This document shows, in pieces, positions 13,991 to 63,498 of a DNA stretch of 64,000 bases. Source of the DNA: a virus; the IMG/VR virus record IMGVR_UViG_3300010430_000022, positions 10,466 through 74,465 of that record. One strand, written 5' to 3'. The notes below the pieces were generated by a model. It ran no database searches. It saw only the letters and a list, made by a program, of their open reading frames with translations, and was not told the DNA's origin. Numbering within the stretch: the stretch's first letter is position 1; every line of letters starts with the position of its first letter. A program made the translations under genes and the position numbers.

Positions 13991-14440
13991 ATGACCTTGC
14001 GACGTAGATCCTTGCTTATCTTCGAGATGGATGACCGTCTTCGAAGACAGCAACGTAACGCTGCCGCCAATCCAGGTGACGTAGACGCACAACGTGCTTT
14101 TGCGCAGAGTCGCAGGCGAGGTGCTACCACAGAGGTAAACAAGAAGCGTCCCATGCTTGGTCGAGGTCATACGGCTCGAACAGAACTACCTGACGGGGTA
14201 ACGCTCTACTCCTCTTCGGTGCGACACGATGGTTGGTGGGGTGTTCATCACGGGCATCAGGAGCCTGACTCAAAGGATGTCTCAGATCACGGTCACGATC
14301 ACGCACACAAGCTTGAATACGGCAAACAGGGCAATATCACTAAGGACGAGCCACCTCATCCCGATAAGGTGCGCGAGTTCCACGAGAAATACGTCGACCG
14401 CTTTCTAAACGGTCAAGCAAGTAGCAATCATGGATCTTGA
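13991..14440 (+). CDS. His-rich basic protein with propeptide-like N-terminus
   Basis: MTLRRRSLLIFEM; TACAAT 6 nt upstream. Confidence 0.6.
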   Translation: MTLRRRSLLIFEMDDRLRRQQRNAAANPGDVDAQRAFAQSRRRGATTEVNKKRPMLGRGHTARTELPDGVTLYSSSVRHDGWWGVHHGHQEPDSKDVSDHGHDHAHKLEYGKQGNITKDEPPHPDKVREFHEKYVDRFLNGQASSNHGS

Positions 14441-14672
14441 GCGTACCCCGTTGCTGCTCGAACGGCGCGGCCGTACCCGCCACGCGAGGCACAAGGCCGC
14501 CGATATCCTTCGGTCTCGCAGCGGTAGAACCAAGAAGCGCAAGAACCGTGGAAGGCTTTCGCGCCTGATTGCTCGTGAAATGGACACTCCACAGCGCTCT
14601 CCTCTCACTGGGCTAGCAATGGGTAACTTCACCGGAGGTATGCCTGGCGGCGGGATCATCAAGCACGCATGA
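14430..14672 (+). CDS. Small basic protein with LERTPLLLE N-terminus
   Basis: MDLERTPLLLER; Arg/Lys-rich. Confidence 0.6.
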   Translation: MDLERTPLLLERRGRTRHARHKAADILRSRSGRTKKRKNRGRLSRLIAREMDTPQRSPLTGLAMGNFTGGMPGGGIIKHA

Positions 14673-15025
14673 TCCGCCAGACGCTTCTAGTTGAGACCTT
14701 GGTCACCAGGACGATCACCCGTAGGGGCCCGGTGTTCATGTATCGCCGCCCCCAGGGCCCACCTGTCACTAGCGATGATTCGATTGATCGGTGGCTGCAC
14801 AAGACCACTCAAGCCTTTGACTTCTCGCCGATGTTCAATGGGGATCAATATCAGTCGAGGATCGTCGCAGAGCGCTATCTAGCACACCTCAAGAAGGAAT
14901 CTGCCCGAGAAGGCATGGACTGGGGAGAGGTTGCTAGTCGCCTCAAGCAGATCAGTCCTCACCTCCGCCGTGGCTTCCAGACCTTCTTCTCGTTCTTTGA
15001 TGCGTCTGTTCGCACAAGCGGCTAA
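14669..15025 (+). CDS. Hypothetical protein with propeptide-like N-terminus
   Basis: MIRQTLLVET; ATGA coupling. Confidence 0.55.
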   Translation: MIRQTLLVETLVTRTITRRGPVFMYRRPQGPPVTSDDSIDRWLHKTTQAFDFSPMFNGDQYQSRIVAERYLAHLKKESAREGMDWGEVASRLKQISPHLRRGFQTFFSFFDASVRTSG

Positions 15026-15714
15026 TGCTCGACGCTGAGACCCTTATCACCACGCTCGCCGGGCCACGTCCCATCAGCGATTTCATTGATAAGGGTCCAG
15101 TCCGAATCTTCACCTGGAATGGTGAACGGGTCACTGTCGGAGAGGTCGAGGTCAAGGACTCGACGCGTCTGGTCATTCCGTTCCGCGTAGAACTCGATGA
15201 CGGCTCAAAGCTTGTGCTCTGCACCGAGACACTGGTCTTGCTCAGGAACGGGGCCCCTAGGTTCCCAGAGCAGCTTGTCTCTGAGACTTCGTTGCTCCCC
15301 CTCTACACGAAGAGCGATTCGTCGGGCTATCCGGTCTACCAAGAACCTGGCGAGTGGCACCGAGCAGCCTTGACGCCCAGCGACCGCAATCGTTGGCGAC
15401 GCGTCAGCCGCATGGTGGCTGAATGGAAACTGGGACGAAGATGCGCGCCAGGAGACGTAGTTTCCTACGTTTCAAAGGACCGAATGGACTGTTCTCCTGA
15501 GAACTTGAAGTTCCATCGGAAAGAACGAAAGAAGACCGAGAAAAAGGTCGGGTTTGCCGAACCGCTCTTCGAAGCGCAGCGGTTTCTCGACAGGTACAAT
15601 CACAAGGTAGTCCGCACCTACCTTGACACTAGCCGTAGTTTGCTGTCGATTAGAGGTTTAGGAACGGCTAACCTATCGGTTGGCGGAGTCTTCGTCTCCG
15701 TAGACCCGGAGTAA
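15025..15714 (+). CDS. Free-standing, degenerate intein (Hint + HNH-like) protein
   Basis: LDAETLITT..G.RPI; FRVELDDGSKL; RMVAEWKLGR...GDVV...SPENL; YNHKVV; NLSVGGVFV. Lacks N-terminal C/S and C-terminal HN. Confidence 0.65.
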   Translation: MLDAETLITTLAGPRPISDFIDKGPVRIFTWNGERVTVGEVEVKDSTRLVIPFRVELDDGSKLVLCTETLVLLRNGAPRFPEQLVSETSLLPLYTKSDSSGYPVYQEPGEWHRAALTPSDRNRWRRVSRMVAEWKLGRRCAPGDVVSYVSKDRMDCSPENLKFHRKERKKTEKKVGFAEPLFEAQRFLDRYNHKVVRTYLDTSRSLLSIRGLGTANLSVGGVFVSVDPE

Positions 15715-15717
15715 CCT

Positions 15718-18126
15718 GTGGCAATTCGAGATCGAGCACTTACCGCTCTCCGTCGCGTGTTTGGTGACGACAGAGATGAGCGGGAGCGCGCAGAGAGTCC
15801 TAGCGCCGACGCTCTACGTCACGCACCCTCCTCCACCTACGCCATCTGGGGGCGTGAGGATATTGGCGGGCTTCTCTCGGTCTCCCAGAACCTCATGGAT
15901 CGCTACGCGGACTACGAGGCAATGAATGACTACCCAGACATTCGTTGCTTCACCGGAGACATGAAGGTCTACGTTGTTGCCGACAACAACGTCATCGTGC
16001 CGACTCCGATCAAGACGATCTGCGAGAGCACCGAAACCTTCGAGATCCTTGCCTACGACAAGAAGAAGAAGTGTTTGGTCCCGGTTACGGCTGAGCACCC
16101 TCGGATTTCAGGACGTAACGCCCCCATTCTTCGTCTCGAACTCAGCAACGGCGAAGTTCTCCGCGTTACCCCCAACCACAAAATCTTCTGCGTCGAGCCT
16201 CGTCCGGGCTACGTCGAGGCGAAAGACCTGAAGAAGGGCGCCTTCATTGTTGGTGCTCGTGCCGGCTTCGAGACTGAAGCCAAGAGCATGCTCACCGTCA
16301 AGACGGCTGGTGGTGTGTGGCTGAGCGAAGACCCAGTTCCGGACAGCTTCGCCCCCGAGGTCTATGACATCACGACCTCGACTCACAACCTCTTGGTCAA
16401 CGGCGTCATTTGCCACAACTCGGCGTTCCACTACTTCGCCAACGACGCAACGCAGCCCAACATGGACAACGGGCGTGTCTGCTGGCTCCAGAGCCCAGAC
16501 CAAGCGGTCGTGGACATGGGCGACACGCTCATCAAGCGCCGCCTCCGGCTTGAAGACGATCTGTTCTCCATCGCCTACTCGCTCTGCCAGTACGGGAACG
16601 ACTTCGAAGAGGTGCTGGTCACTGAGAACGGCGTGGTCGGCCTCAACAACTTGGCAGCGCCCACCATGCGCCGAGTGGAGAAGCTCAACGGTAGCCTGAT
16701 CGGCTACGTACAGGACGTCACAGGTCGCTTTACAGCCAACCAGGACGAATTGCGTCGGATGCTGGCGGGTGCGCTGACCATTCCCAAGCACGTCGCACTC
16801 TTCGAGGACTGGCAGGTCTGCCACTTCCGTTCGCGCTCAACGACTAGACGCTCACCCTATGGGGTGTCTGTTGGCGAAGGTGCGCGATGGATTTGGAAGC
16901 GTCTCGTCATGCTCGAAGACGCGGTCATGATCTACAAGCTGACCCGTTCGCCGGCTCGTTACGCCTTCTACGTGGACGTCACGGACGTTCCACCGAACCG
17001 TGTCGAGTCTTTCTTGAAGCGCGCCAAGCGCGACCTCAAGAAGAAGAAGATGGTCAACCCCAACAACAACTTCCTCGACATGCGCTACAACCCGCTCAGC
17101 AACGATGAGGACTTCTTCATTGCTGTTCGCGACGGTCGTGCGCTCTCCCGTGTTGAAGTGCTCTCGGGCCCCGACTACCAGAACACAGACGACGTCGAGT
17201 ATTTCCAGCGCAAGCTGCACGGCGCCCTCATGGTGCCTCGCGCCTACATGGGCCAAGACGCGCCAATTCAGGGTCGTGCAATTCTGTCCAACGAGGACGT
17301 TCGAGCCGCACGCGTCAGCCTTCAGATCCAAAAGGAACTGAAGAACGGCATCGAGAGCATCGTTCGCACCGATCTCGCAGCCCGAGGTCACGGTGCCCCG
17401 TGGAACGTAGATCTCGACGTCATGATGACCGTGCCCTCCAACATCTACGAGTTGGCAGCCATGGAGGTGAAGAACGCTCGCGCTGACTTTGCTGCCAGGA
17501 TCCAGCCCTACGTCTCTATGCGCTGGCTGCTAGAGAATGTCTTCAAGCTCTCTGACGACGAGATCCGTGAGGTCGAGAAGCAGCGTCGACGCGAGGCCAA
17601 TCTCGCCGATGCCATGGGTATGGACCCGTCCTTCTCCGCCTTTACGGGCGGGCGTCCTCCCGATCAGGATCCTGAGATGGACCCAGGAGCGGCAGGAGGA
17701 GACCCAGGAGCGGCAGCGCCTCCAGGTGGCGGTCTACAAGAGGTTCCTGGTGCTGGTGGAGCCGGACTACAGGAAGTTCCTGGTGGTGGGCTGCAAGAAG
17801 TCCCTGGAGCAGGGCTGCAAGAGGTCCCAGGTAACGGTCTCGAAGAAGTGCGTCCGGGTAGGAATGCCTCTCGTAATGAGTGGCGTGCTTACGACCGTCG
17901 TCGACGTCTTGAAGAGAATCGTTACCGCGAGTCGCGTCAAAACCACCAGAAGTTGGTGGATATGATCGGAAATCTCCAACAAAATGATGCGGGTTTTGCG
18001 CGCCGTTTGGACGAGACAACTTCCTTCTTGAAAGAGTTCAAGCAAGCGACCATGAAACGCGTCAATGGTCGATTGGTGGGCACTCCTTCAGCAGGAGCGG
18101 GTAGACCACAGGCTCGCGGTCACTAG
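15718..18126 (+). CDS. Portal protein (T4 gp20-like) containing an intein
   Basis: 'WKRLVMLEDAVMIYKLTRSPARYAFYVDV', 'EDFFIAVRDG', 'DDVEYFQRKL..AL.VP' are gp20-family motifs. Confidence 0.92.
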   Translation: MAIRDRALTALRRVFGDDRDERERAESPSADALRHAPSSTYAIWGREDIGGLLSVSQNLMDRYADYEAMNDYPDIRCFTGDMKVYVVADNNVIVPTPIKTICESTETFEILAYDKKKKCLVPVTAEHPRISGRNAPILRLELSNGEVLRVTPNHKIFCVEPRPGYVEAKDLKKGAFIVGARAGFETEAKSMLTVKTAGGVWLSEDPVPDSFAPEVYDITTSTHNLLVNGVICHNSAFHYFANDATQPNMDNGRVCWLQSPDQAVVDMGDTLIKRRLRLEDDLFSIAYSLCQYGNDFEEVLVTENGVVGLNNLAAPTMRRVEKLNGSLIGYVQDVTGRFTANQDELRRMLAGALTIPKHVALFEDWQVCHFRSRSTTRRSPYGVSVGEGARWIWKRLVMLEDAVMIYKLTRSPARYAFYVDVTDVPPNRVESFLKRAKRDLKKKKMVNPNNNFLDMRYNPLSNDEDFFIAVRDGRALSRVEVLSGPDYQNTDDVEYFQRKLHGALMVPRAYMGQDAPIQGRAILSNEDVRAARVSLQIQKELKNGIESIVRTDLAARGHGAPWNVDLDVMMTVPSNIYELAAMEVKNARADFAARIQPYVSMRWLLENVFKLSDDEIREVEKQRRREANLADAMGMDPSFSAFTGGRPPDQDPEMDPGAAGGDPGAAAPPGGGLQEVPGAGGAGLQEVPGGGLQEVPGAGLQEVPGNGLEEVRPGRNASRNEWRAYDRRRRLEENRYRESRQNHQKLVDMIGNLQQNDAGFARRLDETTSFLKEFKQATMKRVNGRLVGTPSAGAGRPQARGH
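15946..16419 (+). mobile_element. Mini-intein (158 aa, no homing endonuclease) in the portal
   Basis: R|CFTGD ... LRVTPNHKI ... VYDIT.STHNLLVNGVICHN|S. Confidence 0.92.
17725..17850 (+). repeat. Tandem GLQEVPG peptide repeats in the portal C-terminus
   Basis: GGLQEVPGAG GAGLQEVPGG GLQEVPGA GLQEVPGN GLEEV. Confidence 0.8.
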
Positions 18127-20317: not shown

Positions 20318-22189
20318 ATGACGACCAACACAATGAGCCCACAGGTAGAGCAGCGTTTCCGTGCAAACGCCAGCGCTACCCGTCGGCCTCTGGTCGACAA
20401 CATGTTGGTGGAGTCTGAGGGCTTCACCAAGATGACCGTCCTGGCCGAAGACTCTCAGAGCAAGGGCGCTCTGATTGTCGAAGGTCTGGTCGGTATCTGT
20501 GGAAAGGCGACGAAGAATCGTCGTCTCTACACAGAGTCGATCATGAAGCGAGAGATCAAGCGTCTTCAGGAACGGATCGATTCTCGGTCCCTCCTGGCTG
20601 CTGTGGATCACCCCACAGACGGCAAGTCGCGTATCCGTGAGGCTGGCGCCATCTGCGTTGGTCTCCGGTGCGAGGCCGACGGTCGGATCATCGGCAAGTA
20701 CGAAATCGTCGAAGACTCGACCGGTGGTAAGGATCTCGCCGCATTCCTGCGTGCAGGTGCCTCCATTGGTATGTCCTCCCGTGGCCTGGGTTCGACCTCG
20801 GTCAACATGGAAGGCGTCCACGTTGTTGGCGAGGACTTCAAGCTCCACGGCTTCGACTTCGTCGCTGATCCCGCTTGCGAGACGGCCTATCCCACACTGG
20901 TGTCTGAGGACGTCGACGCGGCACAGGTCGACGAGAACCAGCTTCGCGCAACCTTCGGCAACCTTGTCGAGCAGATCGAAGATCGCGCTCGCCAGGCTGG
21001 TGCCGAGATCGCTGAAGAAGAGGTTCGGGCTCAGGTCGAAGAGGAGTTCAAGTCGGCACTCGATGAGGCCGGTGGCAAGCTCCGTGAAGACATCAAGCTC
21101 CAGGTGGAGTCCGAGATCCGCGAACAGCTTCGCGAAGACTTCTCGGTCAAGCTCCTAAAGGCCCTCCAAGAGCAGCGGACTCAGATCGAGTCTGTTGTGC
21201 GCTCAGAGCTTCTCTCCGACCCCAAGGTCGGTGCCGCCAAGCGCTTCATGGAAGACCTCGCTCAGAAGCTCGTGCCCTTCGCACCGGCGCCCGACCAGCA
21301 AGTCGTCATGGACGATTACGAGGCCAAGCTGGCTTCGCTGCGTGAGGACGTCGAGAAGAACGAGGCTGCGGTCGGCGCCAAGGACAGCGTCATCAACGAG
21401 ATGGCCGAGCGCGTTGAGGTCGCCGAACAGGCCGCTCGCTCGCTGGGCTACAAGCTCTACATCGAGCGCTGCCTTGAGGGTCGCGAGAACGCTGCTCACC
21501 TCCGTGAGATGATCGGCACCCCTGACGGCAGCGAGAGCGCCGACGATCTCCGTGATCGCGTCAGCGCAGTTCTGAACCAGGTCTCCGAGGCAGAGGATCA
21601 GGCCCAAGCGCAAGCTCAGTCCAAGATCAAGCTCAAGGAGCACAAGGCCGATCTGGCCCGCAGGAAGGCAGAGGTCGCAACCGAAGACTTCGACCGTTTC
21701 CGCTCTGAGATGGAAGGACGCTTCGAACGTCTCTCCACTCGCATGGGATCGCAAATCCGCGAGAAGGATCGTGCGCTCTCCGAGGCTCTCGGCCATATCG
21801 AGAACCTAGAGAGCACAGTGGGCCAGTCCCGTCGTCAGCTTCAAGAAGCTGACCTTCGCGCATACGCGGCCCGACGCGTTATCGGCCACCCCCGCGCAAA
21901 CGACATTCTCTCCCTCGTTGAGAGTGGACGAGTGACCTCGAAGGACCAAGTCCAGCAACTTGCCGAGCAGTGGGACAACACTGCAAGCGAGCCTGGCGGG
22001 GTCAGTGAGCGCATTCGTCGTTCACTTGGGCGAGGCCGTGAGGCCCCCACTGAGGACGACCAACAGCGGTTTACTCAACTAATGGAAGACCAGCAGACCA
22101 TTCCCGGTCTTGAGGGCTTCGACACCACCATGGGAGAACTCCGCGCGCTGTCGGGGATCGATCATGACTCTTTCAATGGCAGATTCTAA
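20318..22189 (+). CDS. Prohead protease (T4 gp21-like) fused to a coiled-coil scaffold
   Basis: 'KNRRLY', 'DHP', 'IGMSSRGLGS', 'DFKLHGFDFVADPA'; long E/A/R-rich helical C-terminus. Confidence 0.92.
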   Translation: MTTNTMSPQVEQRFRANASATRRPLVDNMLVESEGFTKMTVLAEDSQSKGALIVEGLVGICGKATKNRRLYTESIMKREIKRLQERIDSRSLLAAVDHPTDGKSRIREAGAICVGLRCEADGRIIGKYEIVEDSTGGKDLAAFLRAGASIGMSSRGLGSTSVNMEGVHVVGEDFKLHGFDFVADPACETAYPTLVSEDVDAAQVDENQLRATFGNLVEQIEDRARQAGAEIAEEEVRAQVEEEFKSALDEAGGKLREDIKLQVESEIREQLREDFSVKLLKALQEQRTQIESVVRSELLSDPKVGAAKRFMEDLAQKLVPFAPAPDQQVVMDDYEAKLASLREDVEKNEAAVGAKDSVINEMAERVEVAEQAARSLGYKLYIERCLEGRENAAHLREMIGTPDGSESADDLRDRVSAVLNQVSEAEDQAQAQAQSKIKLKEHKADLARRKAEVATEDFDRFRSEMEGRFERLSTRMGSQIREKDRALSEALGHIENLESTVGQSRRQLQEADLRAYAARRVIGHPRANDILSLVESGRVTSKDQVQQLAEQWDNTASEPGGVSERIRRSLGRGREAPTEDDQQRFTQLMEDQQTIPGLEGFDTTMGELRALSGIDHDSFNGRF

Positions 22190-22201: not shown

Positions 22202-23647
22202 ATGTTCCAGGCACGTTCAATGATTGCCGAGAGTGCAGAAGGGTGCGCCCTCGCCGATCACGGTATGGTTCGACAGTACGTCAACAAGTGGGCTCCCCTG
22301 CTTGAAGGCATCGAGTCCGAACTCGACAAGTTCACCCCTCGTGGGCAGGCCCAGTATGTGAAGTCCGTCGCGGCCTTCATGCTGGAGAACCAGGCTCGAC
22401 ACCTCAAGCGGCTCTCTGAGGAGACTCGGGCGCTGTCGGTCGGCCCGTTCTTGAAGTTCGTCTTTCCCGTCATCCGACGCGCCGCCGTGCGGTTGGTTGC
22501 GACGCAGATTGCGTCCGTCCAGCCCATGACCGGTCCCATCGGTGGCGTGGCCTTCTACAGGCCACGTTATGCGACGGACAAGGGTCAGGTCGTCGCCGGC
22601 CAGGAGATGAACAAGACGTTCAACAAGTGGTACTCGTCGAACTTCATCGACGGCGAAGGCATTGGCACCGGCAACGGCACCAACACCGTCTTCTCCTCGA
22701 ACCTGAAGTTCCCTCGGGTTCTCTCCGGCACCCTCCGGGTCCTGGTTCGCACGGCTGGCACGACCCAGACGGGCACCCTGGTCGGAACTGACAACGGCGC
22801 TGGCGGTCTGACCGCTGTTGCTGGCGGGCCTCTCGCTGGCGGCACGATCAACTACCAGGCTGGTCAGCTTCAGGTCAACTTCGCCGCCGCTCCGGCGACG
22901 ACCGACGAAGTGCTCATTGAGTACAAGTACGACAACGAACTGAACCCCCGGATCCCCGAAGTCCAGTTGGACATCGCGATCCAGGAGATCCGTGCGGAGT
23001 CGCGCAAGCTCAAGAGCCTGGCGTCCGTCGAGGCTGCGGACGACCTCCGCGCCCTCTGGGGACGTGACATCGACGCCGACCTCGTTGCTCACATGAGTGA
23101 CGAAATGACGGCGGAGATCGACCGCGAGATCGCCGGCACGGCGCTGAACGCAGTCGAGGGTCTGGCCATGCTGGACTGGGACCGTGCGACTCCTTCGGGC
23201 GTCTCCGATCCTGAGCACCTCCAGTCGCTCGTGATCCGCATGTCCGAGGCGAGCCACATCGTTCACCGTCGCACCCAGCGTGCGCCGACGAACTGGTGCA
23301 TCACCTCGTCCGAGGTCGCTGCCCTCCTGGAGACCATGCCCGGATTCGCTTCCGTGGACGATGGTCACGTCTACCAGGGAGGCATCATGAAGGGAGGTGT
23401 CCTCAACAGGAAGTGGGTTATCTACGTTGATCCCCTCTTCCCGCAGGACGAGATCCTCATGGGTTACCAGGGTCCTTCGATCCTGGACACCGGCATGATC
23501 TACTCGCCCTACGTGCCGATGGAGATCACGCCTAACTTCGTTGACCCCAACGACTTCAGCCTCCGTCGCGCGATCCGCACGCGTCACAAGATCACCCTGA
23601 TCCGGCCGGAGTTCTTCTCGAAGGTCAAGATCTCGAACCTCAACTAG
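22202..23647 (+). CDS. Major capsid protein (T4 gp23-like)
   Basis: 'KWAPLLEG', 'LENQ', 'VQPMTGPIG', 'AESRKLK', 'EIDREI', 'YSPYVP', 'DPNDFS'. Confidence 0.95.
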   Translation: MFQARSMIAESAEGCALADHGMVRQYVNKWAPLLEGIESELDKFTPRGQAQYVKSVAAFMLENQARHLKRLSEETRALSVGPFLKFVFPVIRRAAVRLVATQIASVQPMTGPIGGVAFYRPRYATDKGQVVAGQEMNKTFNKWYSSNFIDGEGIGTGNGTNTVFSSNLKFPRVLSGTLRVLVRTAGTTQTGTLVGTDNGAGGLTAVAGGPLAGGTINYQAGQLQVNFAAAPATTDEVLIEYKYDNELNPRIPEVQLDIAIQEIRAESRKLKSLASVEAADDLRALWGRDIDADLVAHMSDEMTAEIDREIAGTALNAVEGLAMLDWDRATPSGVSDPEHLQSLVIRMSEASHIVHRRTQRAPTNWCITSSEVAALLETMPGFASVDDGHVYQGGIMKGGVLNRKWVIYVDPLFPQDEILMGYQGPSILDTGMIYSPYVPMEITPNFVDPNDFSLRRAIRTRHKITLIRPEFFSKVKISNLN

Positions 23648-23746: not shown

Positions 23747-24580
23747 GTGAGCACTCTCTTCGAACGAATCGGCCTCGCAGAAGGACGAGGACGAAACTTC
23801 CGGATTGCTGATCGCAGAGGTGACGCGGCGCGAGCAGACTGGTATTCCGATGACTCGGAGAGTCGTCGGAAGCGTAGTCAACGTCGTGCAATCGCCAAAT
23901 TCCTCAAGCCAGCAGAGGATTGGGCTGACAAGGAATCAGACAGTCTTGGGCACAACAAGAGGCAGCGAGAAGAGCACGCCCGCTATCACACCACGCTAGC
24001 TCTCAACCCCAGTCTGAAGGATGACGCAAGCTTCCATCAGGACCACAAGGACCGTCTCTATAAGCATCAAGAGACGGCGCAGCGGAATCGCCCTGTCCGA
24101 TCTAAGGATCAGAAGAAGCGTGGTGGTGTCGGAGCGCAATGGGACACCGTCGTCGGCGGTAAGCGCGCCAAGCGCTTTGAGGCTACGGAGTCGATGTTCG
24201 ACCGTGTTTTCACCGAGGGCGTAAAGAAGCTCCAACGTGCTGGTCAGGGCCTTGTAGCCTCTGGCACTGTGAGGAATGTCGCAAACCCTCGCTCTGGTCC
24301 GGACTACCCTTACACGCGCCCAGATCCAGATGAGGCCCGAACGGCGAAGGCGCTCTATAAGGCGCACTCTTCTGACGAGCGCGAGACAGCCAGCATCCGA
24401 GGCACTTCACGCAAAGAGGCGATGAAGAAAGCGACCGACAAGACTAAGGCTGAGTTGGAGGACGATCCTCAGGACAGGTGGCGAGACGCCAACTGGAAGC
24501 CTAAGCGTCGCCCTCGTGTCAGCAGGCAAGAGCGCAAGGCTTACCACGACACGCGTGGTGGTGACCGAGAGACCCACTAA
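23747..24580 (+). CDS. Basic putative internal virion protein
   Basis: MSTLFERIGLAE and internal SMFDRVFTE motifs. Confidence 0.6.
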   Translation: MSTLFERIGLAEGRGRNFRIADRRGDAARADWYSDDSESRRKRSQRRAIAKFLKPAEDWADKESDSLGHNKRQREEHARYHTTLALNPSLKDDASFHQDHKDRLYKHQETAQRNRPVRSKDQKKRGGVGAQWDTVVGGKRAKRFEATESMFDRVFTEGVKKLQRAGQGLVASGTVRNVANPRSGPDYPYTRPDPDEARTAKALYKAHSSDERETASIRGTSRKEAMKKATDKTKAELEDDPQDRWRDANWKPKRRPRVSRQERKAYHDTRGGDRETH

Positions 24581-24591: not shown

Positions 24592-26280
24592 GTGTATCAA
24601 GCACATACGCTACTGATCCTCGAAGACCTACTTGGGTCTCGGACCTTTCGTCGACTCATCGAGGGCAAAGACCCTGCGCCTGATCCCGAGCGCCAGTCGC
24701 GCCCGGTCATTCCTCCACATCTCCGCACGAGCCATGAGGAGGACACGCACCCAGCGATGAAGCTGCCGGGCCACAAGTTCCCTCAAGCAGTGCATGACGT
24801 CGCGCACTCCATCAAGAAGGCTGGTGGACGCGCGATGATGGTCGGCGGCTACGTCCGCGATACGCTGGAGAAGCATTTCCATGGAGGGGACGAGCCCTCC
24901 AAGGACTACGACATGGAAGTCCATGGGATGCACCCAGATCACCTGGATAAGCACTTGGACTCCATCGGACGAGTGGACAGAGTCGGCAAGGCTTTCGGGG
25001 TGATGAAGCTCACACACAAGAAGCACGACTTTGACATCTCGATCCCCCGCCGAGACAACAAGGTCGGTAAGGGGCACAAGGGCTTCATGCCCGAGCCTGA
25101 TCCGCACATGACCATTGGCGAGGCTGGTCATCGTCGGGACTTCACCATGAACTCGGTGGCGATGGACCCACACACTGGGCATGTCTACGACCCGCACCAC
25201 GGCATCAAGGACATCAAGAGTCGGACGCTACGGGCTACAGACCCCAAAGCGTTTGCTGAGGATCCTCTGCGTATTCTGCGTGGCGCTCAGTTTGCCGCCC
25301 GCAAGAAGATGACGGTTCACCCACACACCATGAAGCTGATGCAGAACGCCGGGCACGAGCTAAAGGATCTGCCTCGTGAGCGTGTTGGTGTCGAGTGGAA
25401 GAAGCTTCTCATGAAGGGCAAGCACCCTGAGCACGGCCTAAAGGTCTTGCACGACTCGGGTGCGCTGAAGCATCTTCACCCTGAGCTTCATGCACTGACA
25501 GACCACCAACACGATCCGCACGATCACACGAAGGGCACTTCGTTTGAGCACACAGGTCGGGCACTGAGCCATGTTGTGCATGCGACTAAGGGGCTGCCCG
25601 ATGACTCTCGCGAATCGATCCACCACGCCACGCTGATGCATAACGTAGGGCGACCGGCAGGTACGGATGACCACGCTTCGGCTGGCTCAGCTATCTCTCG
25701 TTCTACTGGCAAGAGCCAGTTTGATCTGGAGAAGAACGTCGCCACCAAGACTCATAAGCTCGTAGGCGAGCACGGTGCTCCTCACGAGATTCACGAGGCA
25801 CACAAGCGCGGCGAGAACACAGACGCGCACATTCGCCATCTCGCTCACCGCCTAGGACCGTCGAAGCCAACGGCCCACGACGGCTCGTCTATTGGTGATC
25901 TTCTACACGTCGCTCACGCGTCACATGTGGCAGATGGTAGTGGTGACCCTCACCACGCTGGTGACTTCTTGCGCAAGCGTGCCAAGGCACTTGGGGTTCA
26001 CGACGGGCCTCAAGAGCGGCTTGTTACCGGCAAGCACCTGAAGGCAGATGGTGTCAAAGGCGGACGTCGTATGGGAAGAGCCTTGGACCACGCCCACCAG
26101 AGGCAGTTGGATGGTGATGTCACTACTCACGAGGAGGCGAAGAAGGCTGCACTCGATCACCTCGCACACCTCGAACGTGAAGAGGGGCCTGAACAAGGGA
26201 AGAAGCAGAAGGTCAATCGTCGTAAGAAGCCTCCATTGGCGGAGAACTACTCGCTCTACGCACGCGTCTTTAGTGCTTAG
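24592..26280 (+). CDS. cca: CCA-adding tRNA nucleotidyltransferase (class II), His-rich
   Basis: 'VGGYVRD', 'DYDME', 'RRDFTMNS', 'DPHHG..D', 'EDPLRILRGAQFAAR', 'ERV..EWKKLL'. Confidence 0.9.
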   Translation: MYQAHTLLILEDLLGSRTFRRLIEGKDPAPDPERQSRPVIPPHLRTSHEEDTHPAMKLPGHKFPQAVHDVAHSIKKAGGRAMMVGGYVRDTLEKHFHGGDEPSKDYDMEVHGMHPDHLDKHLDSIGRVDRVGKAFGVMKLTHKKHDFDISIPRRDNKVGKGHKGFMPEPDPHMTIGEAGHRRDFTMNSVAMDPHTGHVYDPHHGIKDIKSRTLRATDPKAFAEDPLRILRGAQFAARKKMTVHPHTMKLMQNAGHELKDLPRERVGVEWKKLLMKGKHPEHGLKVLHDSGALKHLHPELHALTDHQHDPHDHTKGTSFEHTGRALSHVVHATKGLPDDSRESIHHATLMHNVGRPAGTDDHASAGSAISRSTGKSQFDLEKNVATKTHKLVGEHGAPHEIHEAHKRGENTDAHIRHLAHRLGPSKPTAHDGSSIGDLLHVAHASHVADGSGDPHHAGDFLRKRAKALGVHDGPQERLVTGKHLKADGVKGGRRMGRALDHAHQRQLDGDVTTHEEAKKAALDHLAHLEREEGPEQGKKQKVNRRKKPPLAENYSLYARVFSA

Positions 26281-26469: not shown

Positions 26470-27141
26470 ATGAGCCATATCCCTAGCCTGCACGACCGGA
26501 TCTTTGAGGGATTCTCCGACGACGTCAAGCACGCACTGGCCGTCGGAATGCAGACACCCGAACGATTCGGTGGTCCACCCGAGAAGCCCAAGGAGCGTAA
26601 GAAGCCCAAGCCGACTCTGAAGAAGCCGACTCTGAAGAAGCGGCTCAAGAGGTTTGCTACGGACGCCGGCCGAGTCATGTTCCCTCGCAGCGAGGACGTG
26701 ACCCTCTTCGACCAAGTTTTCACGGAGTCCGACAAGAAAAAGCTAGGTTTCGTAGGAAGCGTCAAGAAGATCGCCAAGGACGCCCACGAGTATGCGGATG
26801 TTTCAGATCCCACACACCCTTGGAATAAGATCCTCGTCACAGCGAAGAAGTGGTCTGACCAGGGCGGCGCGCTCGCCGGGAAAGATCAGGCGAAACCTCA
26901 AGCCAAACTTGAGAAAAAGGCTGGGTGGGGGTCTGAAGCCCTGAAACGTAAGAGTTCTTCGAAGGACAAGAAAAGCTCTAAATCAAAACACCCCATGAAG
27001 GTGCTCAGGAAGAGCATGCGGGATGCTCAACGCGACCGCGACCGCGTCAGCCGTGGGGCTCAGGCGCCTCAGGGTGTTGGTCGCTCGAACCTAGGGGCCC
27101 CCGCAAAGACCACCTCGAAGCAACCTTCTGCCAAGAGGTAG
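26470..27141 (+). CDS. Lys-rich putative internal protein
   Basis: SLHDRIFE and TLFDQVFTE motifs. Confidence 0.55.
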   Translation: MSHIPSLHDRIFEGFSDDVKHALAVGMQTPERFGGPPEKPKERKKPKPTLKKPTLKKRLKRFATDAGRVMFPRSEDVTLFDQVFTESDKKKLGFVGSVKKIAKDAHEYADVSDPTHPWNKILVTAKKWSDQGGALAGKDQAKPQAKLEKKAGWGSEALKRKSSSKDKKSSKSKHPMKVLRKSMRDAQRDRDRVSRGAQAPQGVGRSNLGAPAKTTSKQPSAKR

Positions 27142-36016: not shown

Positions 36017-36301
36017 GTGACGCTCGAACGCACCAACCTCATCATGGAGACCGGCCCCTACGGGGGCGGGGGCGGTGGTCGTTCGGCTGGTGGATTCGCT
36101 ACGCCTGTTTCGGGCCGGCGGTTCAATACCTGGCCGTTCGTCCCCAACGCTAAGCTTCTGATGCAGAAGGATCAGGAGGCTCAGCGCCGCCGCGAACGTC
36201 TTCGCGAATTGGCGTTAGGATGGTTCATGCACGGTGGCATGGGGACCGCCGGCTCGACGAACGGTGCGTCTAGTGGCTCAGCCCCAGGATCAATCTTCTA
36301 G
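36017..36301 (+). CDS. Small protein with LERTNLIME N-terminus
   Basis: GAGG RBS; MTLERTNLIMET. Confidence 0.55.
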   Translation: MTLERTNLIMETGPYGGGGGGRSAGGFATPVSGRRFNTWPFVPNAKLLMQKDQEAQRRRERLRELALGWFMHGGMGTAGSTNGASSGSAPGSIF

Positions 36302-49420: not shown

Positions 49421-49977
49421 TAGCCACGCTTTGGCAACGCCCTAATCGTTCCGGTTAGGGGCAGGTGTCCGTGTTTGATCTTGCCTCCGACCTTACGAGG
49501 CACCGCAACACGATCTCCACGCTGCTGGGCCAGCAGATCGTTGCTCTGCACCGGCTTAGCTCCCGGCGCGTGCGAGATCGTGATGTGTGGGTGCTCCTTC
49601 TTCGTGAGGTGTTCGACACCTGAGACGCGAACAGCGTGGATCCCCATCTTCTCATCGTCAGCATGATGCGTCGCGTGGAGGTTCACTGTCTTCTTATGTT
49701 CCGGTGTGTTGTGGAACCGGTCGAGATCCTCTTGGGATGGGTCGTAGTTCAGCGTGACGTGATCGGCGGTTCGCGACTTGTACTTCGACGGGAAGTGCTG
49801 CGCCAACGCCTTCTTAGAGCCGTGGCTCAGTTCAAGCGCAAGATAGTGGCTGTCTGGGGAGTAGGGCGTTCCGCTAGCCGGCGCCGACTGTCGGTCAGAC
49901 TTCGTTCGACGCTCACGGGGCGTAGGCGTTCCGGTCCCAAAGCCTTCGATCAAGAGAGGTGTTCGGCGAAGATTCAT
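49417..49977 (-). CDS. 2H phosphoesterase (tRNA-ligase cyclic-phosphodiesterase-like), His-rich
   Basis: Two H-x-T motifs: 'DHVTL' and 'PHITIS...KPVQSNDLL'; N-terminus MNLRRTPLLIE. Confidence 0.8.
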   Translation of the reverse strand: MNLRRTPLLIEGFGTGTPTPRERRTKSDRQSAPASGTPYSPDSHYLALELSHGSKKALAQHFPSKYKSRTADHVTLNYDPSQEDLDRFHNTPEHKKTVNLHATHHADDEKMGIHAVRVSGVEHLTKKEHPHITISHAPGAKPVQSNDLLAQQRGDRVAVPRKVGGKIKHGHLPLTGTIRALPKRGY

Positions 49978-50642
49978 GAGGTTTTTGGCATCGATCCGGC
50001 AGATCCCCAGTGCTCGTCGTCGACGTGATGCAGCGTGTGCTTCACTCCGAGGTCACTGAGAACCTTCCTGAAGTGTTCAATGTGCTCGGGACGGTCGTCC
50101 CACATGTGAACGTGTTTGAGATGTGGGTGCTCTGAATGGAAACGCTTGAGCATGTGCCCCTTCCACTCAGCAGTCTTCATAGGCTTCTTCTTACCGTCCT
50201 GCGGAGGCTTCAGGAAGAGGTCGTGACCGTGCTTGTGTCCCCTCACCCCGAGCTTGTGCAGGGTATGAGACACAGCGTCTTGCATATCCGGCTTGGCGAC
50301 GCGTCCGGTCATGACCACGACTCTGCTATGCGGAGATGCTTTAGCGGCGTGATAGTTCTTGAGCGTGTGCTCGATTGGGTGCGTCTCGAACGGGTGACGA
50401 AGCGTCTTGTGGTCCCCCCACCAGTCACCAGGCTTGCTGCCTCGTGGATTCGTCCTGCTACGTGAGTGGTAGCGATAGAGATCCTTGTTCTGCGATGTTG
50501 GCTCAGGCGTCCTGGCCAGGGTGCCGTCCATGTCGAAGATGTGGAGGTGTTTCGCATTGCGAGACTCAATGAGGAGCGCAACCTCCTCTGCTCGGATGGC
50601 CTCAAGAATCGGGCTGATTGCTCGAATGGTGCGACTTCTCAT
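49974..50642 (-). CDS. HAD phosphatase (RNA-repair / Pnkp 3'-phosphatase-like), His-rich
   Basis: 'IFDMDGTLARTP', 'WW', 'MTGR', 'LFLKP', 'WK', 'WDDRPEH'. Confidence 0.85.
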   Translation of the reverse strand: MRSRTIRAISPILEAIRAEEVALLIESRNAKHLHIFDMDGTLARTPEPTSQNKDLYRYHSRSRTNPRGSKPGDWWGDHKTLRHPFETHPIEHTLKNYHAAKASPHSRVVVMTGRVAKPDMQDAVSHTLHKLGVRGHKHGHDLFLKPPQDGKKKPMKTAEWKGHMLKRFHSEHPHLKHVHMWDDRPEHIEHFRKVLSDLGVKHTLHHVDDEHWGSAGSMPKTS

Positions 50643-50930
50643 CTATCCCTTATGCCCCGATCCTGGCAGCTTGGCACGTTTCACTACGCGGCCCTTGATC
50701 TTCGACTTCAACTGTCGCCTCTTCTCGGGTGGAACGAAGATCAACTTTCCCTTACGGAAGATGTATTGGGGATGCTTCTTCGACCACCTTTTCCGCTCCT
50801 GTTGCCAGAGCCATTTAGCTGCTCGCTTAGCCCCAAAGGTGGCAGAGGGCCGTTTCTTGGACATCCGCTCCTTCGACGATTGGCGACGGACCTGTAGTGC
50901 CTCGCACAGAAGTGGTGTCCGGGTAAGCAT
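50643..50930 (-). CDS. Small very basic protein with LTRTPLLCE N-terminus
   Basis: MLTRTPLLCEA; TAGACT 6 nt upstream. Confidence 0.6.
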   Translation of the reverse strand: MLTRTPLLCEALQVRRQSSKERMSKKRPSATFGAKRAAKWLWQQERKRWSKKHPQYIFRKGKLIFVPPEKRRQLKSKIKGRVVKRAKLPGSGHKG

Positions 50931-50992: not shown

Positions 50993-52261
50993 ATGACGCA
51001 AGGTAAACCGAAGATGAGTCGTGCGGCGCTACGATGCGGCTCTGTAGCTGTGAGTGTGCTCAAGCCGGGCACTAAACGCTATGAGCGGTGGTTGGCCAGG
51101 CGAAACCGCCGCCGGGCTGCGACCATGCGGAAGAAGCAAGAAGAGGACACCATGTTCGAGGAGCGAGAAGCTGACAAGACCGGGGCGCTCACCTGCGGCG
51201 TCTTCCTCCCGCTCCCCTATGACCTCGCCAAGGACTTCCCGGATAAGAGCGAGCACGACGACTCGGTGCCGCACTACACACTGCTCTTCGTGGGCCCTTG
51301 CACCCCTGCGCAGTTCAAGACGCTTGTCATGGTCATTCGAGGTGTTGCGGTCAAGTTGAAGCCATTCCCTATGGACCTTGCCTCCTACGGCGAGTTCATG
51401 AACAAGGAGGGAATGAAGATCTCCAACATGGGGCCTAGCTTGATCGCTCGATTCCGAATGGCGGCTCTTCACGGCATACTCCGACGCGCCGTCGAGTCGC
51501 TGGCTAAAGGGGTCACGGTGAAGCACACCTACGGACCTGGAGAGTCGAAGTCGATCCCATACGAAGCCCAGTTCAAGCCTCACGCGACCCTGGCTTACCT
51601 TCCGCGCATGATGCCCTACCGAGGCCCGAAGCCAACTGGTAGTTGGAACGTCACTGAGCTTGAGGTCTGGGGCCACGAGAAGGTCCGGATCCCGCTCGGC
51701 AAGACCCTAGCGCGCCAGCCTATTGGCCTGACGCGTGATCCCATCAAGTTCGATTACCCCATGGCCGTCCCTGAGGTCTCGACTGGCAAAGGCAAGGGCA
51801 AGCCCAAGCTGGAGGACAGGATTCCTGGTGGTCTGGCCGATAATTCCGGCCCCGACGATTTCGACCCCAAGCAACTCGCGAAGGGCGTCAAGGTCGAGTT
51901 GGAGCACACCAGCAGCCGCGCCATTGCTACAGAGATCGCCATGGATCATCTGAAGGAGGACCCTCGCTACTACTCCAAGTTGGAGAAGATCCATACCGAA
52001 AGCACGTCGTCGGGCAACATCGCTGCGCCAAACGTGAAGAAGTGGGGAGAGGCGTTCTTGCGCGAACCGCTGCACCTGCGAGCACGCAGCGGAGATCCAT
52101 TCCTCCAGGGAGAGGATGTGGTCGGCGGCTCCATGGGTGCCATGGGTAAGGGGGTCGGTGGCTCCAGTGGGGATATCGGTCTCGACGGATCTCTGCCCTA
52201 CCTAGAGGTGCAGAAGCAGATCGACAAGAAGCTGCGCCGGAAGAAGCTCAAGGGCCTGTAG
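50993..52261 (+). CDS. 2H phosphoesterase fused to a DUF5661-like domain
   Basis: 'PHYTL' and 'PHATL'; 'QLAKGVKVELEHT...IAMDHL.EDPRYYSKL'. Confidence 0.75.
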   Translation: MTQGKPKMSRAALRCGSVAVSVLKPGTKRYERWLARRNRRRAATMRKKQEEDTMFEEREADKTGALTCGVFLPLPYDLAKDFPDKSEHDDSVPHYTLLFVGPCTPAQFKTLVMVIRGVAVKLKPFPMDLASYGEFMNKEGMKISNMGPSLIARFRMAALHGILRRAVESLAKGVTVKHTYGPGESKSIPYEAQFKPHATLAYLPRMMPYRGPKPTGSWNVTELEVWGHEKVRIPLGKTLARQPIGLTRDPIKFDYPMAVPEVSTGKGKGKPKLEDRIPGGLADNSGPDDFDPKQLAKGVKVELEHTSSRAIATEIAMDHLKEDPRYYSKLEKIHTESTSSGNIAAPNVKKWGEAFLREPLHLRARSGDPFLQGEDVVGGSMGAMGKGVGGSSGDIGLDGSLPYLEVQKQIDKKLRRKKLKGL

Positions 52262-52578
52262 TGCTAGAGCGTACCCCCCTGCTCCTTGAACGAGACAAGA
52301 AGCTCGCCTTCCACGGCGGTTCACTCAACCGACACACCCCGCGGGAGAGAGCCTGGCTCCCAAAGCGCTATCGTGCGAAGCACAAGGATGGGCATTTCCG
52401 TCGGAACCCTAAGGGGAAGCTCAAGAAGCGCGCCGGTGATCCTTTGCGGGATGAGCCGCTTCGCCACGACATCGAGAAGCGCGCCAGAAACCGCCACAGG
52501 CACTCTCACGTTCACTCCGACGTCTCCCTAGACCTTATGCGGACTGAACTTCTGCTGGATCACGACAAGAAGACGTGA
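52261..52578 (+). CDS. Small basic His-rich protein with LERTPLLLE N-terminus
   Basis: MLERTPLLLER ... LMRTELLLD. Confidence 0.6.
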   Translation: MLERTPLLLERDKKLAFHGGSLNRHTPRERAWLPKRYRAKHKDGHFRRNPKGKLKKRAGDPLRDEPLRHDIEKRARNRHRHSHVHSDVSLDLMRTELLLDHDKKT

Positions 52579-57882: not shown

Positions 57883-58233
57883 ATGGCACTCTACACCGCA
57901 CAAACGCTTCTCGTCCTCGAAGGTCTCTATGGCGTCGACTATGTCGACCGTATCCTCGATGAGGGGCTCAGTGATATGGCTCGCAAAGCGAAGCGTGCGC
58001 TAGGCACGAGAGCCGGGGCGGCTCTCGCAACTGGCGCACTCGCACTGGGCAGTGCAGGCGCCATCGGTGGTGGAACGGCTATCAGCTACAAGCGCCACAA
58101 GGATCAACAGGCAGACAACAGAAGGGCTCAGGAGATACAGAAGTCTGGACGCGCTGCTCTGAAGCGAGACAAACGGGCAGGCCAGCAGCGTCTTCGTGAT
58201 CTAGGCTACGTCGTCGACGCGCCGAGACGGTAG
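57883..58233 (+). CDS. Putative internal protein with propeptide and hydrophobic segment
   Basis: AGGAG RBS; MALYTAQTLLVLEG resembles the CCA enzyme N-terminus MYQAHTLLILED. Confidence 0.6.
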   Translation: MALYTAQTLLVLEGLYGVDYVDRILDEGLSDMARKAKRALGTRAGAALATGALALGSAGAIGGGTAISYKRHKDQQADNRRAQEIQKSGRAALKRDKRAGQQRLRDLGYVVDAPRR

Positions 58234-62223: not shown

Positions 62224-62231
62224 TCAGTTTT

Positions 62232-62339: not shown

Positions 62340-62411
62340 GCAGGTGTAGCTCAGTAGTAGAGCGTCACGTTGCCAACGTGAGGGCCGTCGGTGCGAATCC
62401 GATCACCTGCT
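62340..62411 (+). tRNA. tRNA-Gly(GCC)
   Basis: TCACG-TTGCCAA-CGTGA; U73. Confidence 0.9.
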
Positions 62412-62415
62412 TCAC

Positions 62416-62488
62416 GCGGTCGTAGTGTTTAACAGCAGCACGCGAGCTTGCCATGCTCGAAGTTGGGGTGCAACTCCCCACGACCGCT
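62416..62488 (+). tRNA. tRNA-Gly(GCC), second copy
   Basis: CGAGC-TTGCCAT-GCTCG. Confidence 0.88.
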
Positions 62489-62491
62489 TCT

Positions 62492-62563
62492 GCTTCCATA
62501 GTGTCAACAGCAGCACGACTGTTTCGTAATCAGTTAGTCTCGGTGCAACTCCGGGTGGAAGCT
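62492..62563 (+). tRNA. tRNA-Thr(CGT)
   Basis: ACTG(T)-TTCGTAA-(T)CAGT. Confidence 0.82.
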
Positions 62564-62693
62564 TTCAGCGAATGCTTTGGTAGGAGTACATCCTGACTGA
62601 TAATCAAGACGACTCGGGCGCAACTCCCGGGGCCCCCACTACGAGGGGGTGCGTAGTGCTAGTAAACCCTCTTGCCTACTACTCGTCGCTGAA
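62564..62693 (+). ncRNA. Y-RNA-like element G (permuted tRNA-Ile(GAT)-like module)
   Basis: TTCAGCGAATGC..TACATC; TGA-CTGATAA-TCA; T arm; GCCCCC/GGGGGT closed acceptor; ..CTACTCGTCGCTGAA. Confidence 0.78.
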
Positions 62694-62697
62694 CCAA

Positions 62698-62769
62698 GGA
62701 CCCGAAGCATAAGCAGTGATGCACTTGGCTCTTAACCTTGGGAATGGGGTGCAAGTCCCTGCGGGTCTA
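62698..62769 (+). tRNA. tRNA-Lys(CTT), second copy
   Basis: Loop CTCTTAA; GGACCCG/CGGGTCT. Confidence 0.75.
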
Positions 62770-63498
62770 TCCAGCCTTACGCTCAGACGTGTCGATTGAC
62801 TGGATCGAGTGCTTCAGGCCGTGAAGGGCGCTGTTGTCACTGTGCTCCTTCTCCCAGGGCGCCTTGAAGGCGCCCTCCTTATCGAGGGCCTTGAACGGCG
62901 TCGGGTGATCCTTCAGGCTGTGCAGCTTTTCAGCGAAACTGTCAGCTTCCTTCTTCATGCCACCGAGGCGCTTCGCGCTCTCGTCGTCCTTCGGGAAGTG
63001 AGCCCCGCGCTTACGGATCTGATCGAGGGGAGCGTGGAAGTGGGTCACCTTCACATGGTAGCCATGCTTGGCTGCGTGGTGCAGGTAAGGCTTCATCTGC
63101 CAAGCCGCCGTGTTCGTGTTGTCCACGATGACGTGCGGGTGACCAGCAGCCATGTGCTCCGCAGCTTGCTGCTGAGCATGGGCATGAGCCTCGCCGAGCT
63201 TGCTCGGATCAAACGAGGGAGTGCCGCCGGGCTTGTCCGGAGGACCGTAGAGTCCTGGGTGCTTGTCGGCTGAGACCACAGCAGCGCCCGAGTGGTGCTT
63301 TGCGATGTGAGTCGACTTGCCTGACCCAGGTGCGGCGACCATGAAGTGAAGCACCTTCTTTTGCGCAGGCGACGGCTCGTCTGCCTCAAGGAACGGTGAG
63401 TAGACCGCCTCCTGGAGGTTTCGGACATACTTGTCCCGTCGAATGGATTCAACGAGAGGAAGGGTGCGGGAGCGACGGATACGGTCGTGAAGGTTCAT
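62767..63498 (-). CDS. P-loop polynucleotide-kinase-like protein (AAA_33 / N4BP2-like), His-rich
   Basis: 'AAPGSGKST', 'VSAD', 'FDPSKLGEAH', 'VIVDNTN..WQMKPY'. Confidence 0.85.
   Translation of the reverse strand: MNLHDRIRRSRTLPLVESIRRDKYVRNLQEAVYSPFLEADEPSPAQKKVLHFMVAAPGSGKSTHIAKHHSGAAVVSADKHPGLYGPPDKPGGTPSFDPSKLGEAHAHAQQQAAEHMAAGHPHVIVDNTNTAAWQMKPYLHHAAKHGYHVKVTHFHAPLDQIRKRGAHFPKDDESAKRLGGMKKEADSFAEKLHSLKDHPTPFKALDKEGAFKAPWEKEHSDNSALHGLKHSIQSIDTSERKAG

Follow-up and report, generated by a model that had tools for sequence, protein, structure and literature searches.

In bacteriophage T4, IPI, IPII and IPIII, all internal proteins, and the protein Alt carry a short capsid-targeting sequence (CTS), which the prohead protease gp21 cuts off (Mullaney and Black 1996; reviewed in PMC9026906). 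For example, IPIII and IPII begin MKTYQEFIAE/A (here and below a slash marks a known or predicted cut), and the leader of IPI ends TITE/A. Positions 4 and 7 of the CTS serve targeting, positions 8 and 10 serve processing, and CTS-like leaders are established on variable basic proteins of T4 relatives (PMC9026906). Here we describe a comparable set of peptides in a 64 kb stretch, hereafter the window, of a 74,465-bp single-contig virus record (IMGVR_UViG_3300010430_000022, positions 10,466 to 74,465; GC ∼59%). At least a dozen proteins of this uncultured T4-like phage, which fall in different Pfam families or in none and are otherwise unrelated, carry a terminal peptide with the consensus x-L-E/R-R-T-P-L-L-x-E and a Pro-containing Arg-Thr-Pro-Leu core, which we call the class-1 tag. 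We put at roughly 0.7 the probability that this tag and a second class of peptide are capsid-targeting propeptides of T4-type head assembly, removed by the prohead protease, and that their cargo includes a packaged RNA-repair kit.

The likeness to the T4 CTS is one of overall design. In both systems a short terminal peptide (9-17 aa here, 10-19 aa in T4) with a hydrophobic-x-Glu end sits on unrelated basic Cys-free proteins, an S77 protease, gp23 and gp20 are encoded, and the cargo genes are scattered and fast-evolving (PMC9026906 for T4). Alt is processed at both ends (PMC9026906), and tags occur at both ends of proteins here. The differences are equally plain: the peptides have an RTPL-core consensus and come in at least two interchangeable classes, they stand at N-termini, at C-termini and inside polyproteins, they mark at least 12-16 proteins compared with ∼4 in T4, and the presumed cargo includes RNA-repair enzymes. 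The gp21-type protease is fused to a scaffold-like tail of ∼430 aa, and the system as a whole is known from sequence alone.

Encapsulin cargo-loading peptides are short terminal motifs that bring unrelated enzymes into an HK97-fold shell. The analogy is one of principle only, as encapsulin peptides stay in place after binding directly to the shell, with no protease, DNA or delivery step. The head-internal and ejected proteins of giant phages include a virion RNA polymerase, and the giant-phage cleavage logo differs at P3, where Ala or a small residue is found. In giant phages such as phiKZ, 201phi2-1 and SPN3US (gp245 protease), many head-internal or ejected proteins are cut after Glu by a T4-related protease (PMC10052503). 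However, their propeptides are mostly long, at 111-254 aa (PMC10052503), and that paper describes no short portable consensus tag; the phage studied here has T4-type gp23, gp20 and S77 genes and not phiKZ-type ones.

Phage RNA repair is itself well described. T4 uses Pnkp and Rnl1 against the anticodon nuclease PrrC, and jumbo phages have RNA-repair modules of their own. Similar activities, namely kinase and phosphatase or cyclic phosphodiesterase ones that heal broken tRNA ends, are combined in these systems with many tRNAs (PMC7824862), and the likeness extends to the Ro60- and LigT-type proteins, CCA-adding activity and ∼25 tRNAs found here. The genes of the known modules are expressed after infection, and packaging is reported for none (PMC7824862), whereas here four enzymes have a capsid-type tag and a cargo-type composition. 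A literature search found no report of packaged RNA-repair enzymes. Particular to the present system are thus the RTPLLxE consensus, two interchangeable tag classes at both termini, a four-enzyme RNA-healing cargo, and pairs of tagged and untagged orthologs that link the tag with a proteome-style shift in composition.

The class-1 tag and its bearers

The initial annotation described ten unrelated open reading frames as starting with a similar motif that ends in Glu. All ten N-termini translate as described; in the tenth (63498, minus strand) the motif exists, yet it lies at residues 11-17 and not at the very N-terminus. Three of the tagged genes (24592, 36017 and 52261) start with GTG. The anticipated enrichment at N-termini over shuffled controls is evident among the 76 predicted proteins of the window. 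The pattern [RQH][TS]x0-1-hhh(h)-E (h, hydrophobic) is present in the first 20 residues of 10/76 proteins and at 0/20,587 internal positions, and a T-based variant finds 9/76 proteins, where shuffled proteins average 0.13 matches and never exceed 2. Even a neutral pattern, Glu after three hydrophobic residues, occurs nine times against 1.03 expected (P = 1.5e-6). When the window is scanned in six frames, seven of the eight motif matches are starts of called genes, and every RTPL tetrapeptide in frame within a called gene lies at a protein terminus. Among the ten tags, P1 is Glu without exception and P3 is L or I in nine and V in one. Synonymous codons vary between the copies (CTT/CTG/CTC/TTG for Leu, ACC/ACA/ACG for Thr) and the DNA upstream of them is unrelated; conservation is thus a property of the peptide and not of the DNA.

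Two further members can be added. The leader of a HAD phosphatase, EEVALLIE/SRNAKHLHIFDMDG, aligns with that of a tagged homolog, MLQRTPLLIE/AASHKVKHLHVFDMDG, and a 1138-aa protein ends in INESSSLLNRTPLSV (…LLNRTPLSV) directly before its stop codon. The proteins with class-1 peptides are as follows.

13991..14440, plus strand: 149-aa basic Cys-free protein; tag MTLRRRSLLIFE at 13991-14026
14430..14672, plus strand: 80-aa protein, pI 12.0; tag MDLERTPLLLE at 14430-14462
14669..15025, plus strand: 118-aa conserved head-module protein; tag MIRQTLLVE at 14669-14695
24592..26280, plus strand: CCA-adding-type nucleotidyltransferase, 562 aa, 63 His, 0 Cys; tag (V)YQAHTLLILE at 24592-24624
29533..32949, plus strand: 1138-aa basic Cys-free protein; C-terminal copy INE/SSSLLNRTPLSV, then stop, at 32911-32946
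36017..36301, plus strand: 94-aa protein; tag (V)TLERTNLIME at 36017-36049
49417..49977, minus strand: 2H-phosphoesterase-like protein, 186 aa, 8.6% His, 0 Cys; tag MNLRRTPLLIE at 49945-49977
49974..50642, minus strand: HAD_SAK_1 phosphatase, 222 aa, 11.7% His, 0 Cys; leader MRSRTIRAISPILEAIRAEEVALLIE at 50565-50642
50643..50930, minus strand: 95-aa protein, pI 12.0; tag MLTRTPLLCE at 50901-50930
52261..52578, plus strand: 105-aa protein, 9.5% His; tag (V)LERTPLLLE at 52261-52290
57883..58233, plus strand: 116-aa basic protein; tag MALYTAQTLLVLE at 57883-57921
62767..63498, minus strand: P-loop kinase (AAA_33, polynucleotide-kinase-like), 243 aa, 9.5% His, 0 Cys; leader MNLHDRIRRSRTLPLVE at 63448-63498

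The tags of the small proteins recur in their homologs. Orthologs of the 80-aa protein (in G002, G001, L002 and L026) keep M-x-(L/P)-ERT(P/T)LLLE while the remainder has diverged, and in the 118-aa family M1, I2, R3, L6, L7 and E9 are invariant in seven homologs. The G002 ortholog of the 94-aa protein has an identical tag, homologs of the 149-aa protein in L044 and L036 read MMLYRSPLVLTE..SRTSLRLISE/MDDRLR, and the AQTLLVLE tag of the 116-aa protein is found again on a CCA-enzyme homolog (P0031). The 105-aa protein has a tag-like MRTELLLD close to its C-terminus. Neither the small tagged proteins (80-149 aa) nor the tagged proteins from other contigs that we surveyed matched a Pfam or PHROGs family. 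The 1138-aa protein, whose N-terminal MWEWFDMWALYEE is conserved, found no match in Pfam, PHROG, a PDB sequence search or the ESM Atlas.

The prohead protease and a second tag class

The presence of a gp21-type protease was confirmed: an S77 enzyme with His and Ser motifs is encoded beside a gp23 capsid protein and a gp20 portal.

15718..18126, plus strand: gp20-type portal with inserted intein (Portal_T4 7.9e-48, Intein_splicing 1.3e-10)
18245-20262: two acidic scaffold-like proteins
20318..22189, plus strand: prohead protease, 623 aa; S77 (gp21) domain at residues 44-193 (Peptidase_S77, PF03420, 6.4e-14)
22202..23647, plus strand: gp23-type major capsid protein (Pfam Gp23 5.5e-55)

The protease scores 52.3 bits against a Peptidase_S77 cut-off of 27, and tblastn with it matched 2172 T4-like phage records. 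H98 and the segment G-M-S153-S154-R-G-L-G-S are invariant in comparison with T4-like and cyanophage gp21; the long C-terminal part is acidic, coiled and scaffold-like. Its own NMLVE33 aligns with the T4-like ELLIE, a site that conforms to the gp21 logo (PMC9026906). In an alignment of the capsid protein with T6 gp23 and three relatives, h-x-E sites are conserved at residues 8-10, 33-35, 60-62 and 70-72, the last being R-L-[STN]-E. These sites sit in an N-terminal region of ∼72 aa that is the counterpart of the T4 delta piece, and site 70-72 is near the region of the T6/T4 gp23 maturation site. Because the capsid protein and the N-terminus of the protease itself both have conserved h-x-E sites, a T4-like specificity of the protease is plausible, and it is presumed to be the enzyme that cuts after the Glu of the tag. 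The same region holds a free-standing 229-aa ORF with a weak HNH_3 match just upstream of the portal gene (window 15025-18126 region), and in the relative L026 the portal is split into several blocks.

A second class of peptide opens two further proteins of the head region, listed here together with an 860-aa protein that has Glu-ended sites of another kind.

23747..24580, plus strand: 277-aa basic Cys-free protein; class-2 tag (V)STLFERIGLAE at 23747-23782
26470..27141, plus strand: 223-aa basic Cys-free protein; class-2 tag MSHIPSLHDRIFE at 26470-26508
33426..36008, plus strand: 860-aa polyprotein-like protein; N-terminal SPALMME, orthologs PALMME or PALISE

The class-2 motif, S-[LT]-[LM]-[FHY]-[DE]-[RQ]-[IV]-F with the consensus S-L-[FYH]-D-R-[IV]-F-x-E, opens the 277-aa and 223-aa proteins and is followed there by Glu. 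Each protein also has an internal, Glu-flanked copy (ATE/SMFDRVFTE/G and SEDVTLFDQVFTE/S, respectively); orthologs of the 223-aa protein start with MSHTTSLYGRVFVE and MNTPSLFDRVFTE. Homologs from other metagenomes begin MSLYDRVLVE, MSLFDRILAE, MSLHDRILTE or MNLFERLFE. Placement of the Glu depends on the terminus: N-terminal tags have it after them, and C-terminal copies are preceded by x-x-E, as in LAE/NYSLYARVFSA of the CCA enzyme (a class-2 copy at 26245-26277), LSE/SNSFYNRIFSS, and the INE that precedes the class-1 copy of the 1138-aa protein.

Orthologs can carry one class in place of the other, as they do in the kinase and HAD families. The 1138-aa protein shows such a replacement at its C-terminus: its G003 ortholog ends ..DESKTTLFSRLAGIV (TLFSRLAGIV) in place of RTPLSV. 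Such swapping on orthologous cargo would be the behaviour expected of portable address labels. The class-2 form MSL[FYH]DR[IV][LF]xE has few identities with T4 MKTYQEFIAE, but both are ten residues long and place an aromatic residue fourth, hydrophobic ones at positions 7 and 8, and Glu last. The 860-aa protein, in which DPxxFM[AG]E recurs five times at regular spacing and HPSRFMKRR is terminal, is probably another protease substrate; it looks like a polyprotein that would be cut after each FMAE, with the repeated motif as a third kind of protease site or docking motif.

Relatives, composition and a probable RNA-repair cargo

No cultured relative was found: blastn gave no match, and the best capsid-protein match in INPHARED has 33% identity. 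There are 12 related IMG/VR contigs, with capsid-protein identities of 76-98%. Completeness estimates of only 9-26% for four of them suggest that contigs of ∼74 kb are pieces of larger genomes, and for this reason we read the window's contig as a fragment. Across relatives the tag persists while the linker behind it drifts. Conservation in the tag compared with the next 30 residues is 0.67 vs 0.14 for the CCA enzyme, 0.92 vs 0.34 for the kinase and 0.65 vs 0.20 for the HAD phosphatase. Cargo-type proteins evolve quickly, being 43-56% identical between two phages with capsid proteins that are 98% identical. Cargo content varies among the near-identical G000, G002 and G003 (loci L001, L003, L017, L018, L023 and L024); in G003, four additional genes lie between the capsid gene and the CCA gene, and upstream of the portal the three small tagged genes are absent.

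The composition of the tagged proteins was said to be mostly basic and His-rich. Basic it is, in all ten (pI 9.4-12.0), but only five of the ten are His-rich (8-11% His). The universal trait is instead the lack of Cys: the ten proteins total 1748 aa and contain one Cys, within a tag (LLCE), where the proteome frequency of 0.86% predicts ∼15. T4 IPI, IPII and IPIII are Cys-free too, and further basic head-region proteins with at most one Cys begin with other Glu-terminated leaders (23747, 26470, 29533 and 33426). Tagged homologs from the wider survey are likewise Cys-depleted (CCA enzyme, p = 4.6e-8; kinase, p = 0.0076; HAD, p = 0.013). High His content is limited to the tagged enzymes of the window's clade, which have 8.6-11.7% where the proteome averages 2.6%; in LYRTPL-tagged homologs elsewhere His makes up 3-4%. 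One idea for the extreme His content is a pH-switchable charge in the DNA-packed capsid.

The CCA enzymes show the association of tag and composition most directly. Those of G000 and G002 have tags at both ends, 11.2% and 12.4% His, and 0 Cys. The ortholog in G003, a phage whose capsid protein is 92% identical to that of the window, has no tag, no extensions, 3.9% His and 1 Cys. With capsid identities of 92-98% between the phages concerned, these tagged and untagged orthologs are in effect a natural experiment.

More distant homologs repeat the pattern. Dozens of CCA enzymes have a 100-130-aa N-terminal extension that starts ..LYRTPL(R/L/I)L(T/V/L)E, some with a C-terminal copy, whereas cellular homologs start ∼22 residues before GGxVRD and contain 3-4 Cys. 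Tagged kinase homologs (P0128-P0130, and P0134 with the class-2 MNLFERLFE instead) have ∼240 aa and 0 Cys, compared with ∼145 aa, a P-loop at residue 7-9 and 3-5 Cys in untagged ones. HAD homologs P0177, P0210, P0183 and P0180 start with ..RTPLL(I/V)E, 8-12 residues ahead of DMDG; others start with the class-2 MSL(Y/F/H)DR(I/V)LxE, and the catalytic DMDG lies 8-15 residues behind a tag of either class. Within a single contig the tag can be shared by several different proteins (three in L036, four in L044 and two in L039). The metagenome loci with tagged homologs are short and have no head genes on them.

The proposal that the tag is specific to this phage does not survive these comparisons, since CCA enzymes and other proteins encoded on many other metagenomic contigs bear variants of it, LYRTPLxLxE for one. 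In the LYRTPL lineage (L036, L039 and L044), a ∼45-aa leader, FNL(I/V)E-G-x-LYRTPLxLxE...SWDLGYHHAxRGK, is common to the CCA enzyme and several proteins without a Pfam match, and many of the CCA enzymes end RE/SLNL(V/L). A degenerate DNA pattern search of IMG/VR for M-x-L-E-R-T-P-L-L-h-E returned only a known relative and one new short contig, L026. The corresponding search for G-x-L-Y-R-T-P-L-x-L-x-E had a single match, on the T4-like contig G005 (40% GC; encodes S77 and gp23). We discarded it as chance: the match reads AGC as Ser, lies within a non-coding terminator and supports nothing.

Four of the tagged proteins are RNA-end-healing or tRNA-repair enzymes, the 2H phosphoesterase among them being a candidate. 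The CCA-adding enzyme, judged as a class II enzyme, matches PolyA_pol (PF01743, 1.8e-15) and PolyA_pol_RNAbd (PF12627, 4.7e-13), and its GGYVRD aligns with the GGxVRD motif of homologs. It has no Pfam match to the HD domain PF01966, which most surveyed homologs list, and reads LMHNVGRP where the homolog consensus is LMHDIAKP. The phosphatase matches HAD_SAK_1 (PF10307, 1.4e-13; 51.6 bits against a cut-off of 25.6), a family named for 'Swiss Army Knife' RNA-repair proteins, and has the DxDxT motif as FDMDGT. The 2H protein has HVTL and HITIS motifs; its match to tRNA_lig_CPD (PF08302, 2.2e-4) scores 21.2 bits, below the 23-bit cut-off. The kinase matches AAA_33 (PF13671, 1.3e-16; 61.6 bits against a cut-off of 27), with GSGKS as Walker A and a conserved DNTNT, and its substrate would be RNA 5′ ends. 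In an AF2 model of the kinase, the core (residues 49-165) has a pLDDT of ∼82-98, and the leader forms a separate helix (12-37, pLDDT ∼81-84) joined to the core by a low-confidence linker, an arrangement that is decisive neither way. No RNA ligase was found in the 74-kb contig.

The neighbourhood holds other genes of RNA metabolism. Untagged RNA-repair neighbours (window 51125-54529) are a LigT-like 2H protein with DUF5661, which is without a tag even from its longer ORF start (50993), and a Ro60/TROVE-vWA protein. No Y RNA was identified near the Ro60 gene; ARAGORN places a tRNA-Arg inside it (53169-53249), a call without confirmation from Rfam. The window also encodes a phage tmRNA (130 bits) and a tRNA array of ∼25 genes (window 55421-55836 and 58959-62769). 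A protein with two Clp_N domains fused to MazG (window 38238-39098) and a Sir2-family protein between tRNA genes (61177-62082) may relate to host-defence conflicts. At the other end, window 1-12916 and the 10.4 kb upstream in G000 encode a long array of paralogous acidic fibre-like proteins (∼480-650 aa) interleaved with ∼60-aa proteins and repeat proteins, none of them tagged.

Explanations and meaning

How might such a system work? We propose that a newly made protein is docked by its tag on the prohead's acidic scaffolding core. Cleavage by the gp21-type serine protease (20318-22189) would follow, after the Glu of an N-terminal tag or after the Glu that precedes a C-terminal one, and so free the mature protein within the shell. 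The basic, Cys-free cargo would stay with the DNA and probably be ejected with it. What the sequences show is the motif with its placement and conservation, the T4-type machinery and the link to composition; binding, cleavage, packaging and ejection are steps that we infer. As the host cytoplasm is the only sensible site for RNA-repair enzymes, delivery with the DNA is a natural corollary, and the virion would carry a ready tRNA repair kit that is active before phage genes are translated. That the lineage both packs and injects a tRNA-healing kit, consisting of a 5′-kinase, a 3′-phosphatase, a 2′,3′-cyclic phosphodiesterase and a CCA-adding enzyme, is a tentative proposal that we consider somewhat more likely to be wrong than right.

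Each computational test able to contradict the capsid-targeting reading came out in its favour, and overall we regard that reading as partly supported. Several points weigh against it. The class-1 tag (RTPLLxE) has no sequence similarity to the T4 CTS MKTYQEFIAE, and the head module does not include the tagged genes at 49417-50930, 52261, 57883 and 62767, which occupy both strands. The T4 late promoter TATAAATA has one 1-mismatch match, where 2.4 are expected, and upstream regions hold only generic extended -10-like TAnAAT strings, from which expression timing is not assignable. The phage tRNA genes are mostly without an encoded 3′ CCA, so the CCA enzyme has an ordinary intracellular role that needs no packaging. 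Finally, the family comparisons, including the Cys tests, are not phylogenetically independent and ignore kinship.

Among the alternatives, the likeliest is that the tags bring proteins to the prohead core but that these act only there, in assembly or DNA condensation, and are degraded, expelled or retained without being delivered as active enzymes. Much of the T4 core is broken down and lost from the head, and IPIII influences head morphogenesis (PMC9026906). The small members (80, 95 and 105 aa; pI 10.9-12.0) do resemble DNA-binding internal proteins, and the 860-aa and 277-aa proteins resemble polyproteins that are cut into pieces. Yet the four repair enzymes keep their catalytic motifs and have no substrate inside a capsid. 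Moreover, their whole sequences are re-tuned, with no Cys and many His, which argues for selection on the mature folded protein; we therefore think a purely core-bound role unlikely. Quite improbable, in our view, is a signal for docking or degradation that has nothing to do with the capsid: a degron or adaptor motif for the Clp_N-Clp_N-MazG protein or a host AAA+ protease, or a hub peptide that gathers repair enzymes, for example on the vWA domain of the Ro60-like protein. The phage itself encodes the double Clp_N protein and, near the tagged repair genes, the Ro60/TROVE-vWA protein, and the location of several tagged genes outside the head module fits as well. However, tagged proteins also include small basic ones whose genes sit directly upstream of the portal or downstream of the capsid gene, and the 1138-aa protein besides. 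Such a signal would leave unexplained the invariant terminal Glu, the C-termini in which a cut site precedes the tag, the purge of Cys, and the match in layout between class 2 and T4.

The peptide could also be incidental to a nucleic-acid element at gene starts, such as a promoter, a translation signal or a recombination joint. T4-type hypervariable regions shuffle cassettes, and most copies of the tag do stand exactly at gene starts. But copies also occur at C-termini and inside proteins, and distant homologs keep the peptide at 30-60% protein identity. Together with the free variation at synonymous positions and the unconserved upstream DNA, which rule out a DNA-level repeat or promoter as the basis of the tag, this effectively excludes such an element.

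Should the capsid-targeting reading be correct, the packaged and possibly injected proteins of uncultured T4-like phages would become readable from sequence by three marks: a terminal tag, a Glu cut site and the lack of Cys. The T4 internal-protein system would then be a general modular device for cargo loading with several interchangeable address peptides, and RNA repair would join anti-restriction, ADP-ribosylation and RNA polymerases among the activities delivered by virions. The T4 CTS has already been used for loading foreign proteins into phage heads (PMC10229621), and the short portable tags described here may be useful in the same way. In another vein, the pairs of tagged and untagged orthologs offer a clean system for learning what proteins need in order to live in a capsid; the loss of Cys and, in this clade, a His content of 8-12% would be adaptations for survival in a DNA-packed extracellular capsid and for unfolded passage through the tail. 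For the phage itself, a packaged kit would mean that damaged host tRNAs are repairable ahead of any phage translation. This would solve a catch-22, namely that a repair gene is unexpressible once translation has been shut down by dormancy, by toxins that modify tRNAs, or by nucleases acting on the anticodon or the acceptor end.

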